NCBI RefSeq assembly: GCF_022846255.1
Contig: NZ_AP025682.1
Length of the DNA stretch: 64,000 bases
Source of the DNA: Escherichia coli
Lineage (GTDB): Bacteria; Pseudomonadota; Gammaproteobacteria; Enterobacterales; Enterobacteriaceae
Reading direction: 5' to 3' (one strand)
In this document: piece by piece, positions 3,626-58,267 of the stretch
Layout: each line of letters begins with the position of its first letter
How positions within the stretch are numbered: position 1 is the first letter of the stretch
The notes under the pieces: generated by a model
What the model saw: the letters and a program-made list of their open reading frames with translations, nothing else
Told to the model about the DNA's origin: nothing
The model's database searches: none
Position numbers and translations under genes: made by a program

Positions 3626-3798
3626 GCCTGATGCGACGCTGGCGCATCTTATCAGGCCTGGGCTGGAGTAGCCCCGTAGGTCGGATAAGGCGTTTACGCC
3701 GCATCCGACAGTCGTTGCCTGATGCGACACTGGCGTGTCTTATCAGGCCTACGCTGGAGCAGCCCCGCGCCGCATCCGACACGCATTGCACGATGCCG
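3626..3798. repeat. BIME cluster of about 4 REP (repetitive extragenic palindrome) units
   Basis: Alternating copies of GCCTGATGCGACGCTGGCGCATCTTATCAGGCC and GTAGGTCGGATAAGGCGTTTACGCCGCATCCGACA between dedD and cvpA. Confidence 0.9.
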
Positions 3799-5988: not shown

Positions 5989-6082
5989 CACCTTCGCTCA
6001 GGGTGCCGGTCTGGCACCCTGACTTGCAACTCCCGTCGAAATCCTGCAAAGTCTGCCTGCAAGTCTGACAGGGCAACTATTT

Positions 6083-6652
6083 ATGAAACGACTCATTGTA
6101 GGCATCAGCGGTGCCAGCGGCGCGATTTATGGCGTGCGCTTATTACAGGTTCTGCGCGATGTCGCAGATGTTGAAACGCATCTGGTGATGAGCCAGGCCG
6201 CGCGCCAGACCTTATCTCTTGAAACGGATTTTTCCCTGCGCGAAGTGCAGGCGTTAGCTGATGTGACGCACGATGCGCGCGATATTGCTGCCAGCATCTC
6301 TTCTGGTTCTTTCCAGACGCTGGGGATGGTGATTTTACCCTGTTCAATCAAAACCCTGTCCGGCATTGTCCATAGCTATACTGATGGCTTACTGACCCGT
6401 GCGGCAGATGTGGTGCTGAAAGAGCGTCGCCCGCTGGTGCTCTGCGTGCGTGAAACACCATTGCACTTAGGCCATCTGCGTTTAATGACCCAGGCGGCAG
6501 AAATTGGTGCGGTGATTATGCCTCCCGTTCCGGCGTTTTATCATCGCCCGCAATCCCTTGATGATGTGATAAATCAGACGGTTAATCGTGTTCTTGACCA
6601 GTTTGCGATAACCCTTCCTGAAGATCTCTTTGCCCGCTGGCAGGGCGCATAA
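6083..6652 (+). CDS. ubiX: Flavin prenyltransferase UbiX
   Basis: 189-aa ORF MKRLIVGISGASGAIYG..., flavoprotein fold signature. Confidence 0.96.
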   Translation: MKRLIVGISGASGAIYGVRLLQVLRDVADVETHLVMSQAARQTLSLETDFSLREVQALADVTHDARDIAASISSGSFQTLGMVILPCSIKTLSGIVHSYTDGLLTRAADVVLKERRPLVLCVRETPLHLGHLRLMTQAAEIGAVIMPPVPAFYHRPQSLDDVINQTVNRVLDQFAITLPEDLFARWQGA

Positions 6653-6833
6653 CTCCGCTGTTGCCCTGTTTCAGGGCAATTTTGCAACCGCGATCAAATC
6701 CTCGACATTTTGTTCCTTTCGATGAATCGAAACGCTGCGATTCAACCGCCATACCTGCTATCTTCAACTCTAGGACAATAATGCAACGTCTTATTAACAT
6801 ATTTAACGTTGAATGTTACTGTTGTCGTAAAGA

Positions 6834-6850
6834 TGGCATAAGACCTGCAT
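6834..6850 (+). promoter_or_regulatory. Candidate sigma54 promoter upstream of argT
   Basis: TGGCAT-N5-CTGCAT; GG and GC at canonical -24/-12 spacing, about 68 bp upstream of argT ATG. Confidence 0.5.
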
Positions 6851-6917
6851 GAAAGAGCCTGCAAACACACAACACAATACACAACATAAAAAAGCCATTT
6901 TCACTTGAGGGTTATGT

Positions 6918-7700
6918 ATGAAGAAGTCGATTCTCGCTCTGTCTTTGTTAGTCGGTCTCTCCGCAGCGGCTTCCAGCTATGCGGCGCTACCGGAGACGGT
7001 ACGTATCGGAACCGATACCACCTATGCGCCGTTCTCATCGAAAGATGCCAAAGGTGACTTTGTTGGCTTTGATATCGATCTCGGTAACGAGATGTGCAAA
7101 CGGATGCAGGTGAAATGTACCTGGGTTGCCAGTGACTTTGACGCGCTGATCCCCTCACTAAAAGCGAAAAAAATCGACGCCATTATTTCGTCGCTCTCCA
7201 TTACCGATAAACGTCAGCAGGAGATTGCTTTCTCCGACAAGTTGTACGCCGCAGATTCTCGTTTGATTGCCGCCAAAGGTTCACCGATTCAGCCAACGCT
7301 GGATTCACTGAAAGGTAAACATGTGGGTGTGCTGCAGGGATCAACCCAGGAAGCATACGCTAACGAGACCTGGCGTAGCAAAGGCGTGGATGTGGTGGCC
7401 TATGCCAACCAGGATTTGGTTTATTCCGATCTGGCTGCAGGACGTCTGGATGCTGCGTTACAAGATGAAGTTGCTGCCAGTGAAGGATTCCTCAAGCAAC
7501 CTGCTGGTAAAGATTTCGCCTTTGCTGGCTCATCAGTGAAAGACAAAAAATACTTCGGTGACGGTACCGGTGTAGGGCTACGTAAAGATGATGCTGAACT
7601 GACGGCGGCGTTTAATAAGGCGCTTGGCGAGCTGCGTCAGGACGGTACCTACGACAAGATGGCGAAAAAGTATTTCGACTTTAATGTCTACGGTGACTGA
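6918..7700 (+). CDS. argT: Lysine/arginine/ornithine periplasmic binding protein
   Basis: 260 aa with signal peptide; paralogous to hisJ immediately downstream. Confidence 0.96.
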
Positions 7701-7758
7701 TACGTCGCAGGGAAACTGTACCTGATGGAATGATCATCATGGTGCACGCCAGGTTTGT

Positions 7759-7775
7759 TGCACTATCGTGGTGCA
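7759..7775 (+). promoter_or_regulatory. Candidate NtrC binding site upstream of hisJ
   Basis: TGCACT-ATCGT-GGTGCA (11/12 to TGCACC-N5-GGTGCA); extra GGTGCA half-site at 7741. Confidence 0.4.
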
Positions 7776-7856
7776 TTGAAATGCATACTTAAGCATTTTT
7801 AATGAAAAATAATACGTCTAACGGGGCGGGATATTTTGCCTTGATGGTCAATTTTA

Positions 7857-7872
7857 TGGCACGATAAGTGTA
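7857..7872 (+). promoter_or_regulatory. Sigma54-like -24 element upstream of hisJ, imperfect -12
   Basis: TGGCACGATAAGTGTA: perfect TGGCAC, -12 reads GT instead of GC; about 100 bp downstream of the NtrC-like site. Confidence 0.3.
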
Positions 7873-7920
7873 ACAAACCTGTAAATATTCCCTATAAAAA
7901 GACTGTCAGTTGAGGACATT

Positions 7921-8703
7921 ATGAAAAAACTGGTGCTATCGCTCTCTCTGGTTCTGGCCTTCTCCAGCGCAACTGCGGCGTTTGCTGCGATTCCGCAAAA
8001 CATCCGCATCGGTACCGATCCGACCTATGCGCCATTTGAATCAAAAAATTCACAAGGCGAACTGGTTGGCTTCGATATCGATCTGGCGAAGGAGTTGTGC
8101 AAACGCATCAATACGCAATGTACGTTTGTCGAAAACCCACTGGATGCGTTAATCCCGTCCTTAAAAGCGAAGAAGATTGACGCCATCATGTCATCGCTTT
8201 CCATTACGGAAAAACGTCAGCAAGAAATTGCCTTCACCGACAAACTGTACGCTGCCGATTCTCGTCTGGTGGTGGCGAAAAATTCCGACATTCAGCCGAC
8301 AGTCGAGTCGCTGAAAGGCAAACGGGTAGGCGTATTGCAGGGCACCACCCAGGAGACGTTCGGTAACGAACATTGGGCACCAAAAGGCATTGAAATCGTT
8401 TCTTATCAGGGGCAGGACAACATTTATTCTGACCTGACTGCCGGACGTATTGATGCCGCGTTCCAGGATGAGGTCGCTGCCAGCGAAGGTTTCCTCAAAC
8501 AACCCGTCGGTAAAGATTACAAATTCGGTGGTCCGTCTGTTAAAGATGAAAAACTGTTTGGCGTAGGGACCGGCATGGGCCTGCGTAAAGAAGATAACGA
8601 ACTGCGCGAGGCACTGAACAAAGCCTTTGCCGAAATGCGCGCTGACGGTACTTACGAGAAATTAGCGAAAAAGTACTTCGATTTTGATGTTTATGGTGGT
8701 TAA
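7921..8703 (+). CDS. hisJ: Histidine periplasmic binding protein
   Basis: 260 aa with signal peptide; followed by hisQMP. Confidence 0.96.
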
Positions 8704-25930: not shown

Positions 25931-27148
25931 TTACAGCTGATGATAACCAGAAAGGAAACGCGCGAACTTGCTCAAAGACAGCTCGATATCATCGACACGC
26001 GGTAGCGTGACAATGCGGAAGTGATCCGGCCACGGCCAGTTGAATGCCGTCCCTTGCACCAACAGGACTTTTTCCTGCAACAGGAAATCCAGCACCATTT
26101 TCTGATCGTCGTGAATGTTAAAGCGTTTGGCGTCGATTTTCGGGAACATATACAGCGCACCACGAGGTTTCACGCAGGAAACGCCCGGAATATCGTTGAT
26201 CAATTCCCACGCGCGGTTACGCTGCTCATAAAGACGACCGCCAGGGGTAATAAATTCACTGATGCTCTGATAACCACCCAGCGCGGTCTGAATGGCGTGT
26301 TGCGCAGGAACGTTAGCACACAGGCGCATTGAAGCCAGCATTTCCAGACCTTCGATGTAACCTTTGGCGTGTTTTTTCGGCCCGTTCAATACCATCCACC
26401 CCTGACGGAAGCCTGCAACGCGGTACGTTTTCGACAGTCCGTTAAAGGTAATGGTCAGCAGGTCAGGTGCCAGCGGCGCAATGGAGTGATGCTCAGCGTC
26501 GTCGTAGAGAATTTTGTCATAAATTTCATCGGCGAAGATAATGAGATTATGCTGACGTGCAATCTCCACAATCTCCATTAAAAGCTCTTTGGAATATACC
26601 GCGCCGGTTGGGTTATTTGGGTTGATAATAACGATCCCACGCGTACGAGGCGTAATTTTAGCGCGAATATCATCGAGGTCCGGGAACCAGTCAGAGGATT
26701 CATCGCAAAGATAATGCACCGCTTTACCGCTGGAGAGCGAAACCGCTGCGGTCCATAGTGGGTAATCAGGTGCAGGAACCAACATTTCGTCCCCGCTGTT
26801 CAGCAATGCCTGCATTGCCTGAACGATAAGCTCCGATACACCATTGCCGATGTAAATATCTTCCACGGTAACATCACGCATGCCACGAGCCTGGTAGTGC
26901 TGCATGATGGCTTTACGCGCGGAGTAAAGACCTTTGGAATCGCAATACCCTTGAGCGGTAGGCAGGTTGCGTATCACGTCAACGAGAATTTCATCTGGCG
27001 CGTCAAAACCGAACGGGGCAGGGTTGCCGATGTTCAGTTTCAGTACCTTGTTACCTTCTTCTTCCAGGCGTTTTGCTTCTTTCAGCACCGGACCACGGAT
27101 GTCATAACAGACATTCTCTAATTTGCTGGATTTTTCAATGGGGGACAT
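25931..27148 (-). CDS. alaA: Glutamate-pyruvate aminotransferase
   Basis: 405-aa class I/II aminotransferase; PLP-lysine context ..FNGLSKTY.. Confidence 0.97.
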   Translation of the reverse strand: MSPIEKSSKLENVCYDIRGPVLKEAKRLEEEGNKVLKLNIGNPAPFGFDAPDEILVDVIRNLPTAQGYCDSKGLYSARKAIMQHYQARGMRDVTVEDIYIGNGVSELIVQAMQALLNSGDEMLVPAPDYPLWTAAVSLSSGKAVHYLCDESSDWFPDLDDIRAKITPRTRGIVIINPNNPTGAVYSKELLMEIVEIARQHNLIIFADEIYDKILYDDAEHHSIAPLAPDLLTITFNGLSKTYRVAGFRQGWMVLNGPKKHAKGYIEGLEMLASMRLCANVPAQHAIQTALGGYQSISEFITPGGRLYEQRNRAWELINDIPGVSCVKPRGALYMFPKIDAKRFNIHDDQKMVLDFLLQEKVLLVQGTAFNWPWPDHFRIVTLPRVDDIELSLSKFARFLSGYHQL

Positions 27149-49915: not shown

Positions 49916-51586
49916 ATGTCAGTAAGCGCATTTAACCGACGCTGGGCGGCGGTCATTCTGGAAGCATTAACGCGTCACGGCGTAAGACACATCTGTATCG
50001 CCCCTGGCTCGCGTTCTACACCGTTAACGTTAGCGGCGGCGGAGAATTCCGCATTCATTCACCACACCCATTTCGATGAGCGCGGACTGGGGCACCTGGC
50101 GCTGGGGCTGGCGAAAGTCAGCAAGCAGCCGGTGGCGGTGATTGTGACCTCCGGCACGGCGGTAGCAAATCTCTATCCGGCACTGATAGAGGCCGGGTTA
50201 ACCGGAGAAAAACTGATCCTGTTAACCGCCGATCGCCCGCCGGAGCTAATTGACTGCGGCGCGAATCAGGCGATTCGTCAGCCGGGAATGTTCGCCTCTC
50301 ACCCCACGCACAGTATTTCACTGCCGCGCCCGACCCAGGATATCCCCGCACGTTGGCTGGTTTCTACCATCGACCACGCTCTCGGTACGCTTCATGCGGG
50401 CGGAGTCCATATCAACTGTCCGTTTGCCGAACCGCTGTATGGCGAAATGGACGACACCGGGCTTATGTGGCAACAGCGGCTGGGCGACTGGTGGCAGGAC
50501 GACAAACCGTGGCTGCGTGAAGCGCCTCGTCTGGAAAGTGAAAAACAGCGCGACTGGTTCTTCTGGCGACAAAAGCGCGGCGTGGTGGTTGCCGGGCGCA
50601 TGAGTGCGGAAGAGGGCAAAAAAGTCGCACTGTGGGCGCAAACTCTTGGCTGGCCGCTGATTGGCGATGTGCTGTCGCAAACCGGACAGCCGCTGCCGTG
50701 TGCCGATCTCTGGTTAGGCAATGCCAAAGCGACCAGCGAACTGCAACAGGCACAAATTGTGGTGCAACTGGGAAGCAGCCTGACGGGCAAACGGCTCCTC
50801 CAATGGCAGGCAAGCTGTGAACCCGAAGAGTACTGGATTGTTGATGACATTGAAGGGCGACTTGATCCGGCACACCATCGCGGACGTCGCTTAATTGCCA
50901 ATATTGCCGACTGGCTGGAGCAGCATCCGGCAGAAAAACGCCAGCCCTGGTGCGTTGAAATTCCGCGCCTGGCGGAACAGGCAATGCAGGCGGTTATTGC
51001 CCGTCGCGATGCGTTTGGCGAAGCGCAACTGGCGCATCGCATCAGCGACTATCTGCCTGAACAGGGTCAATTGTTTGTTGGTAACAGCCTGGTGGTACGT
51101 CTGATTGATGCGCTTTCGCAACTTCCGGCAGGTTACCCGGTGTACAGCAACCGTGGTGCCAGCGGTATCGACGGGCTGCTCTCGACCGCCGCTGGCGTAC
51201 AGCGGGCAAGCGGCAAACCGACGCTGGCGATAGTGGGCGATCTCTCCGCACTTTACGATCTCAACGCGCTGGCGTTATTACGTCAGGTTTCCGCGCCGCT
51301 AGTATTAATTGTGGTGAACAACAACGGCGGGCAAATTTTCTCGCTGTTGCCAACGCCGAAAAACGAGCGCGAGCGTTTCTATCTGATGCCGCAAAACGTC
51401 CATTTTGAGCACGCCGCCGCGATGTTCGAGCTGAAATATCATCTTCCGCAAAACTGGCAGGAACTTGAAACGGCACTTGCCGACGCCTGGCGCACGCCAA
51501 CCACCACGGTGATTGAAATGGTGGTTAACGACACCGATGGTGCGCAAACGCTCCAGCAACTTCTGGCGCAGGTAAGCCATTTATGA
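49916..51586 (+). CDS. menD: SEPHCHC synthase (ThDP-dependent)
   Basis: ORF 49565..51586 has 117-codon upstream read-through; start set at ATG giving [13 protein letters not shown]..., 556 aa. Confidence 0.95.
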
Positions 51587-56618: not shown

Positions 56619-58267
56619 TTGGGACGATACTGAATCAGCACCAGACGCTCCTGACGATCGATGGCATCTGCGGGCGGAATGGCGAGACTGTTGATATCTT
56701 CATTGCGGTCAACCGAAAGCACGAGTGTAATAATCCCCTCCTGACGATGTTGATTAAGCCAGTTTGCGAACTCATCACCGCTGACAAATCTCCCTTTCGC
56801 ATCCGGATAATTAAGGCCGTATTTCAACTCACCTGTCTGGCGATACATGATGATGTCATCGCGTTGCAGGCTCCATGCCAGACCTGCGGCAACACCGACG
56901 CTATCAGTAAGAATATAGCGGCTTGGCTGAAGTGATTCTTGTGTCATCTCGACAAAAAATTGCGGATGTTTTCCTTCCATGACTCTGTCAGGAATTGAAA
57001 ATCCTACCAGCAACGCCAGCCCCAGCGGGCAAAGCGCGGCAAAAGACCAGGTCTTTTCGACGTTTGTTAAGGTGTACCAGCCGAAAAATGCCCATAGCGA
57101 AAAAATCGACCAGGCACAAAAGACTTTATAGCTCTCGAAGGTTTGCCACACCGGCGTGTTCATTGCTCCCCAGGGGGAGACCACAAATGTGGCAATAATG
57201 CCAGTGACGCCAAAAGCGATGTTAATCCAGCCATTAATCCGCAACGCCAGAGGATTATTTTTTGCTGCCAGCAAAGCGTAATGCGCCATCAGCATTGCCA
57301 GAGGAGCAAAGCAAGAAAGAATATAGGTGGGCAATTTGCCTTTGGCGACGGAGAAAAACAACAGCGGCATTATCGTCCAGCTCAACAAATAGACGGTTGC
57401 GGAATGCTTGCGGTTTTTCCAGCCTGCGTACAGTGCTCCGGGGAGTAATCCCAGCCACGGCAGGCTACCGGCAATGATGACCGGCAAGTAGTACCAGAAC
57501 GGAGCTCTATGCTGAGCATCATCCATTGCAAAGCGTTGAATATGCTCAACCCAGAAAAAATAGTGCCAGAAGTCAGGCTCCCGCTGCGCTATCGCCAGTC
57601 CCCAGGGGAGAACCGTCAGTACGCAACTGATGACCGCCAGCCAGCCGTAAATAAAGAGATCTTTCCAGCGTTTTTGCGTTGTAACCCATGGAAGCACGCT
57701 TAATACCGGCACGGCAAGGGCGAGAAAACCTTTGGTCATCACCCCCATGCCGCAGGTGATTCCCAGCAGTAAAAATCCTGCGCTTTTGCCTTTCCACGTC
57801 TGTGCCTGCATTGCCAGCCAGAAGCTGCACATTCCCGCCACCAGCCAGAAGGCAATAAACGGATCGAGCACGGCATAAGTGCCGATGGCATAGACAATGA
57901 ACAATGAGAGGTAAATCACTGCGGCGAGTAATGCCAGACGTTTATCGCGCCATAAGCGCAGAGTAAACCAGGTCACCAGCGCGGCAGTTAACAGGGTCGC
58001 AAAGATAACGCCTGCCCGCACACCAAAGTTATTCGCGCCAAATAGCCATTGCCCAATGCTGTTAATCCAGTATCCGGCAATGGGTTTTTCGAAATAACGT
58101 AGTCCTAACAGATGGGGAACAATCCAGTCGCCGGATGCCAGCATTTCCCGACTGATTTCCGCATAACGCGTTTCATCGGGTTGCCAGAGCAGACGCGTGC
58201 TGATCGGTAACAGGTAATAGCAGGCAATAAATGCGAAGAGGCCGATAAGGTAACGTACCGATTTCAT
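56615..58267 (-). CDS. arnT: Undecaprenyl-phosphate-L-Ara4N:lipid A transferase
   Basis: 550-aa polytopic glycosyltransferase. Confidence 0.96.

Follow-up and report, generated by a model that had tools for sequence, protein, structure and literature searches.

The sigma-54 promoter of Escherichia coli argT and the possible binding sites of its activator NtrC

How does NtrC reach the argT promoter (argTp) of Escherichia coli? The promoter is activated in E. coli, Salmonella and Citrobacter although all three lack the upstream NtrC palindromes of their relatives, and a perfect NtrC site lies behind the gene. The question is modest and testable, and its answer would show how freely bacterial enhancers get lost, moved or shared in evolution. 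The stretch of DNA analysed here (the window, 64,000 nucleotides) is E. coli chromosome with the gene order …purF-ubiX-argT-hisJQMP, and a 701-bp query around the promoter motif finds matches in 5,425 of 5,426 complete E. coli genomes, annotated ubiX / argT. The window runs opposite to K-12, where the order for the minus strand reads hisP-hisM-hisQ-hisJ-argT-ubiX-purF-cvpA-dedD. K-12 coordinates (U00096.3) were obtained as 2,427,791 + (6918 − window coordinate), with a further 1,978 subtracted for U00096.2. About nine positions between the ubiX stop and the argT ATG distinguish K-12 from the window, none of them within the core motif, the palindrome at -190, the conserved blocks or the argT leader, so that published K-12 data transfer directly. 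An Rfam search of 6000-8200 at E ≤ 1 returned no match.

The features of the promoter and its gene are as follows.

6834 to 6850, plus strand: argTp core sigma-54 (-24/-12) promoter, TGGCAT-AAGAC-CTGCAT, from sequence, pattern enrichment, position weight matrix (PWM), published sites and conservation.
6859 to 6863 (about 6860), plus strand: predicted sigma-54 transcription start, from motif geometry, 12 nt past the C of GC and 58 nt before the ATG.
6860 to 6917, plus strand: argT 5' leader with a C/A-rich tract at about 6862-6889 and the Shine-Dalgarno sequence GAGG at 6907-6910, from sequence.
6918 to 7700, plus strand: argT coding sequence, lysine/arginine/ornithine-binding periplasmic protein of 260 amino acids, from the open reading frame list, translation and RefSeq annotation.

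The earlier note, made from the sequence alone, had proposed TGGCAT-N5-CTGCAT, with GG and GC at the correct spacing and about 68 bp upstream of the start codon, as a candidate sigma-54 promoter for argT. The motif is present exactly as described, with TGGCAT at 6834-6839, AAGAC at 6840-6844 and CTGCAT at 6845-6850, and 68 bp lie between 6850 and the ATG at 6918. The GG at 6835-36 (-25/-24) and the GC at 6847-48 (-13/-12) are 10 bp apart, or 12 from G to G, which is the sigma-54 spacing. The motif points towards argT on the plus strand, and transcription is predicted to start near 6860; the published rule that places the start 19 bp downstream of the motif centre (window 6841) likewise gives 6860 and a distance of 58 to the ATG (PMC4591121).

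The 17 nucleotides at 6834-6850 are almost certainly the -24/-12 core of argTp, a known promoter that depends on sigma-54 (RpoN), is activated by NtrC and serves argT and, by read-through, hisJQMP. The proposal of the note is borne out by the literature, in which the same 17-mer is the argT sigma-54 site of E. coli ChIP-seq, of gSELEX and of Salmonella. Bonocora et al. report it as the sigma-54 ChIP-seq site OS22 (motif ATGGCATAAGACCTGCA, K-12 minus strand), assigned to argT with a distance of 58 (PMC4591121), and Shimada et al. recovered the argT site with the same 17-mer ATGGCATAAGACCTGCA by gSELEX with purified RpoN holoenzyme, with and without NtrC (PMC8743547). In Salmonella, Samuels et al. 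identified TGGCATAAGACCTGCATG as the sigma-54 site of argT by ChIP-chip, found argT 3.5-fold higher in the wild type than in an rpoN deletion when the promiscuous activator DctD250 was present, and, with reference to Ames and Nikaido 1985, counted argT among four operons whose sigma-54 dependence has been proven by experiment (PMC3844500). In nitrogen-starved cells, Brown et al. observed NtrC ChIP-seq peak 13, a weak one (5.4-fold) that they added by eye, at 2,425,861-2,425,941, corresponding to window 6790-6870 (PMC4066584). Of the 12 sigma-54 promoters tested by Ma et al., their cloned "argTp", window 6662-6859 according to the primer sequences, was the strongest (PMC7045595), although this clone also includes a sigma-70 promoter (see below), so that its output is not purely sigma-54 dependent. 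argTp is already known, both from EcoCyc and from genome-wide sigma-54 and NtrC data sets, and finding it here is correct but ordinary. The EcoCyc status of the E. coli promoter in 2015 was "predicted" and not "confirmed" (PMC4591121), and our literature search did not find a mapped, rpoN-dependent 5' end of E. coli argT.

If argTp behaves like other members of its sigma-54 class, RNA polymerase with sigma-54 would sit on the core as a closed complex unable to open alone. Under nitrogen limitation, phosphorylated NtrC oligomers would loop the DNA, spend ATP and open the promoter, and transcription would then begin near 6860. The resulting leader would carry the C/A-rich tract caaacacacaacacaatacacaacataa (6862-6889), and a ACACAACAC-type tract is kept across genera. 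argT is an R1-seed target of the small RNA GcvB, verified in Salmonella and conserved in E. coli (PMC9299463), which probably accounts for the conservation of the tract as the likely GcvB target site.

To compare the locus among relatives, species-representative genomes were scanned with the ArgT protein, resulting in 80 Enterobacteriaceae loci. All 80 carry TGGCAY-N6-TGCW about 80 nt before the ATG with unchanged GG, GC and spacing, while position -14 can be C, A or G and leaders are 40 to 79 nt long. In an alignment of 20 genera with a mean column identity of 63%, the TGGCA and TGC columns are invariant. This invariance is evidence for the function of argTp independent of the published data. 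The same alignment revealed further conserved blocks between ubiX and the promoter.

6691 to 6710 (-169 to -150), unstranded: invariant block CGATCAAATCCT…ATTT, from the 20-genus alignment.
6756 to 6764, 6783 to 6787 and 6794 to 6798, unstranded: further conserved blocks TGcTATCTT, GCAAC and TTAAC, respectively, from the same alignment.

These blocks (CGATCAAATCCT…ATTT, TGcTATCTT and GCAAC…TTAAC) are as strongly conserved over the 20 genera as the -24/-12 motif itself, and none of the IHF, Nac and NtrC consensus sequences tried on them accounts for them. In the region from enhancer to promoter, the IHF scan gave only 2-mismatch matches, of which the window holds 500 and which are common by chance, and the scan for the Nac pattern ATA-N9-TAT gave no site. 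The intergenic DNA also contains a 16-nt direct repeat, AGGGCAATTTTGCAAC and AGGACAATAATGCAAC, 99 bp apart (6673 and 6772).

We searched for NtrC sites with TGCACY-N5-RGTGCA and up to 3 mismatches. Over the whole 64-kb window, the consensus is not enriched overall. Upstream of argTp, there is one 2-mismatch match, at 6662-6678, centred at -190 just past the ubiX stop. It is the nearest match with at most 3 mismatches, and none lies between it and the promoter, in agreement with the observation in the note that no obvious NtrC palindrome is visible within 180 bp upstream. NtrC-dependent promoters have at least one upstream TGCACC-N5-GGTGCA site, typically a pair about three helical turns apart; E. 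coli has no candidate for it other than the 2-mismatch match at -190, whereas relatives carry such sites at -221 and -190. Among the 80 loci (454 kb), all 98 NtrC matches with 0-1 mismatch fall into two places, 40 at -250 to -151 and 58 at +850 to +999 in the argT-hisJ spacer. Confined in this way, both places represent real clusters of NtrC sites.

The upstream cluster is dominated by a palindrome at -221, which is found in most genera, perfect in an Enterobacter cloacae genome (TGCACCTGCAGGGTGCA) and one mismatch away from the consensus in K. pneumoniae. In part of the genera, it is joined by another upstream site, either at -190 (Klebsiella, Raoultella) or at -208; the sites at -221 and -190 are 30 bp apart, as in the classical layout with three helical turns. 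In Escherichia (E. coli, E. albertii, Escherichia sp.), about 30 bp are missing directly past the ubiX stop (6650-6662), exactly where relatives carry the -221 palindrome, and Salmonella and Citrobacter retain only decayed remnants there. The suggestion of an enhancer further away or inside ubiX was only partly right: in relatives, it is located just past 180 bp, but between the ubiX stop and the promoter (-221/-190) and not in ubiX, and in E. coli this site is missing and the only strong NtrC site lies downstream of argT.

7759 to 7775, unstranded: perfect NtrC palindrome TGCACTATCGTGGTGCA between argT and hisJ, the only match without mismatch in the window and a candidate remote enhancer.

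This palindrome is centred at +907 from the argTp start and at -116 from the predicted start of a sigma-54-like motif ahead of hisJ. It falls within NtrC ChIP-seq peak 12, which is enriched 23.7-fold (PMC4066584), and NtrC-like sites recur at the argT-hisJ position across the 80 loci. A literature search for the two NtrC-like 17-mers of E. coli, 6662-6678 and 7759-7775, found neither of them printed in the papers covered.

The front of hisJ has the layout of a classical NtrC/sigma-54 promoter. Its motif TGGCACGATAAGTGTA (7857-7872) ranks first in the window by PWM (see below), and an AT-rich, ARG-box-like sequence lies between the palindrome and TGGCACGATAAGTGTA. TGGCAC is invariant in 77 loci, with GC at -12 in 42 of them; the Citrobacter form is the canonical TGGCACGATAACTGCA, and in Escherichia GT stands in place of GC. 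No sigma-54 ChIP peak is listed at hisJ for E. coli. Two readings fit the motif, a promoter in decay or a non-canonical promoter of the kind found at Salmonella hydN (TGGCACGATTCGTGTA).

One tentative explanation for E. coli, less likely than not, is that the palindrome at 7759-7775 acts as the argTp enhancer from 907 bp downstream, looping across argT; it would be shared with or inherited from a sigma-54 promoter of hisJ. It is the sole perfect NtrC site in 64 kb and lies under the strong ChIP peak (23.7-fold versus 5.4-fold at argTp). The distribution of sites among the 80 loci points in the same direction. Escherichia, Salmonella and most Citrobacter lack an upstream site bearing an intact TGCAC/GTGCA half, and nearly all of them keep a downstream site with 0-1 mismatch (one Citrobacter has 2), whereas the three loci that have lost the downstream site (at least 3 mismatches) keep upstream sites. 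NtrC reportedly works over kilobase distances and from downstream, as Reitzer and Magasanik are said to have found in 1986. However, this complementarity between upstream and downstream sites is confounded by phylogeny. Upon deletion of glnK, argTp-lacZ placed at the lac locus still responded, with an increase of 2.4-fold versus 3.2-fold for argT mRNA at the native locus (PMC4958250), which is mild evidence that the downstream site is not strictly required, the extent of the lacZ fragment not being given in the source. The title of Schmitz et al. (1988), as far as a title tells, also implies essential sites in the argT promoter region.

Taken a step further, the Escherichia lineage might have lost the proximal argTp enhancer by deletion (about 30 bp at -221) and the -12 GC of an ancestral sigma-54 promoter of hisJ by mutation, with argTp now driven by the hisJ-proximal NtrC site 907 bp downstream. 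We consider this full scenario doubtful, though if true, it would provide an example from nature of a bacterial enhancer taken over by a promoter across a gene.

The second place from which NtrC might act is the palindrome at -190, which coincides with a hairpin.

6660 to 6684, plus strand: palindrome TTGCCCTG-TTT-CAGGGCAA followed by TTTT, right after the ubiX stop (TAA, 6650-52); likely terminator hairpin of cvpA-purF-ubiX.

That the NtrC-like 17-mer TGCCCTGTTTCAGGGCA (6662-6678) is the E. coli argTp enhancer, possibly in addition to terminating ubiX, seems to us rather unlikely, and slightly less credible than the downstream site. It has 2 mismatches to TGCACY-N5-RGTGCA, both symmetric, shares its position with the 1-mismatch NtrC-like sites of Klebsiella and Raoultella, and lies 30 bp from the -221 sites of relatives. 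Ma et al. speak of NtrC sites on argTp (PMC7045595), and their clone begins at the first base of this palindrome, which suggests that some database may list 6662-6678 as an NtrC site. On the other hand, the two deviating bases are the A of GCA and the T of TGC, described as highly conserved in NtrC boxes (PMC8743547). At the 2-mismatch level, the window yields about one match in every 9 kb, and NtrC gives a weak ChIP signal at argT. The hairpin itself has a 9-bp stem of -17.7 kcal/mol, followed by TTTT, and a hairpin with T-tract but differing, compensating stems (e.g., CGCCCC/GGGGCG and CGCCCG/CGGGCG) is kept in 64 of 73 distinct orthologous sequences, several of the stems being without any NtrC resemblance. 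Judging from these compensating changes across genera, the palindrome at 6660-6684 is most likely primarily the terminator of cvpA-purF-ubiX, and we downgraded it as an NtrC site accordingly.

In a broader form of this second reading, equally doubtful, the -190 palindrome or other weak sites would suffice for the activation of argTp. In a third reading, activation by NtrC would need no dedicated site. The position of the NtrC peak at argTp (6790-6870) might seem to locate the enhancer. At the astC, nac and yeaG promoters, NtrC is known to bind further upstream. However, the astC, nac and yeaG peaks of the same table (PMC4066584) also coincide with the sigma-54 motifs listed in PMC4591121, so that the peak position at argTp does not discriminate, and we rejected it as an enhancer locator.

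argTp also overlaps with a second promoter.

6794 to 6829, plus strand: overlapping sigma-70 promoter with the putative hexamers TTAACA (6794-99) and, at a spacing of 17 bp, TGtTACTGT (6814-22), and a start at about 6828.

According to Table S3 of Schaefer et al., the argT sigma-54 motif lies at +6 to +22 of a sigma-70 transcript (PMC4551910), which places the sigma-70 start near 6828, about 32 nt upstream of the sigma-54 start. A sigma-70 promoter scan of 6000-8000 made no call on the plus strand, and the promoter thus rests on PMC4551910 together with our reading of TTAACA / TGtTACTGT as its probable hexamers. Expression of argT with rpoN was 23% of the level without rpoN, and sigma-54 lowered sigma-70 initiation on argT DNA in an in vitro competition (PMC4551910). 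The published data thereby show that parked, unactivated sigma-54 polymerase at argTp lowers transcription from the overlapping sigma-70 promoter. In the read table of the same study, the first of its three columns also shows hisJ, hisQ, hisM and hisP reduced about 3.5- to 6-fold, like argT; we took this column as the sigma-54 sample by its fit to the 23% for argT. This common shift would be possible by read-through or by an indirect effect. The sigma-54 "repression" at argT-hisJQMP (6918 to about 10970) may accordingly cover the whole operon or be indirect.

It could be argued that E. coli argTp, with its proximal enhancer gone, is mainly a parking place of sigma-54 that represses the sigma-70 promoter of argT, activated sigma-54 transcription being minor. 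The reduction to 23% and the in vitro competition are in line with this proposal, as are the lack of the -221 site in Escherichia and the weak NtrC peak. Nevertheless, we find it improbable, since argT belongs to the NtrC-induced set, its expression climbs when NtrC-phosphate climbs, and the core motif never varies, whether or not a lineage has a strong enhancer. The similar shift of hisJQMP in the same RNA-seq table also means that the effect may be partly indirect.

How good is the motif by itself? A scan of the whole window with the loose consensus TGGCACG-N4-TTGCW at up to 2 mismatches showed no enrichment (16 found, 16.1 expected), and the argT site, with 3 deviations from the extended consensus (T for C, A for G and C for T), is outside this list and is, on its own, a weak-consensus match. 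With the argT site lying outside 2 mismatches, we replaced the loose scan with a GG/GC-anchored pattern and a PWM built from the 28 sites printed in two papers (PMC4591121, PMC3844500). The 64-kb window contains the anchored pattern TGGCAY-N5-YTGCW 4 times versus 0.50 expected, a count reached by none of 100 shuffles, and two of the four are published sigma-54 ChIP-seq sites (argT and an intragenic one in arnT). By PWM, the argT site ranks second among about 128,000 window positions with a score of 14.7, near the bottom of the training range (14.4-20.8). The PSSM scores published for it, 9.46 and 16.2, likewise place it close to the bottom of their respective tables (PMC4591121 and PMC3844500). 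The motif is a weak but real sigma-54 match. We dismiss the reading of a chance GG-N10-GC match without function, which the missing enrichment of the loose consensus and the 3 deviations might favour, as ruled out by the published sigma-54 occupancy in vivo and in vitro and at odds with the invariance of the motif in 80 species against a mean column identity of 63% in the spacer alignment.

As for the other sigma-54-like sites in the window, TGGCATGGAGCCTGCA in arnT (56865-56880, minus strand) is the intragenic ChIP-seq site IS28 of Bonocora et al. (PMC4591121). The remaining exact matches to TGGCAY-N5-YTGCW are located at 26457-26472 (minus strand), in sense orientation within alaA, and at 51146-51161 (minus strand), antisense within an open reading frame of 673 amino acids; both sequences are absent from the main text of Bonocora et al., where the peak tables are found (PMC4591121). 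Shimada et al. reported an RpoN-holoenzyme gSELEX peak (31-32%) for cvpA-purF-ubiX at K-12 2,429,072, which corresponds to about 3659 of the window at the dedD-cvpA junction (PMC8743547). We saw no good -24/-12 motif near 3659, the nearest 2-mismatch matches being at 2961 and 3262.

The promoter call itself adds nothing, as argTp is already a biotechnological part. It serves as a positive control, in that a sequence-only reader found a genuine weak-consensus sigma-54 promoter.

The closest known system is argTr of Salmonella enterica Typhimurium, a classical NtrC/sigma-54-regulated promoter with the same 18-mer TGGCATAAGACCTGCATG, gene, orientation and distance to the ATG as in E. coli. Salmonella also has the same hairpin at -190 and likewise misses a good site at -221, but the stretch that is missing from Escherichia is still present there, as about 30 bp with a decayed half-site (…GCGTGCA). 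Whereas the Salmonella promoter is experimentally proven, the E. coli one was "predicted" in EcoCyc in 2015.

The paradigm of NtrC-activated sigma-54 promoters, glnAp2, resembles argTp in its -24/-12 core, in NtrC-phosphate as activator and in its induction by nitrogen limitation. Strong NtrC sites lie within about 150 bp upstream of glnAp2. Unlike glnAp2, E. coli argTp has no upstream NtrC match with fewer than 2 mismatches. Ma et al., in whose set glnAp2 and argTp are the two strongest promoters, mention NtrC sites within -1 to -99 (PMC7045595).

The competition of sigma-54 and sigma-70 holoenzymes over overlapping DNA is shared with glmY/glmZ (PMC3844500). Their promoters overlap fully, however, whereas the sigma-54 motif of argT lies downstream of the sigma-70 start, with two 5' ends about 32 nt apart. 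Finally, Enterobacter, Klebsiella, Raoultella, Pluralibacter and others have the orthologous argTp core at the same spacing to the conserved upstream blocks and between the same flanking genes, together with NtrC palindromes of 0-1 mismatch, which Escherichia lacks; these lie at -221, and some lineages have them at -190 or -208 as well.
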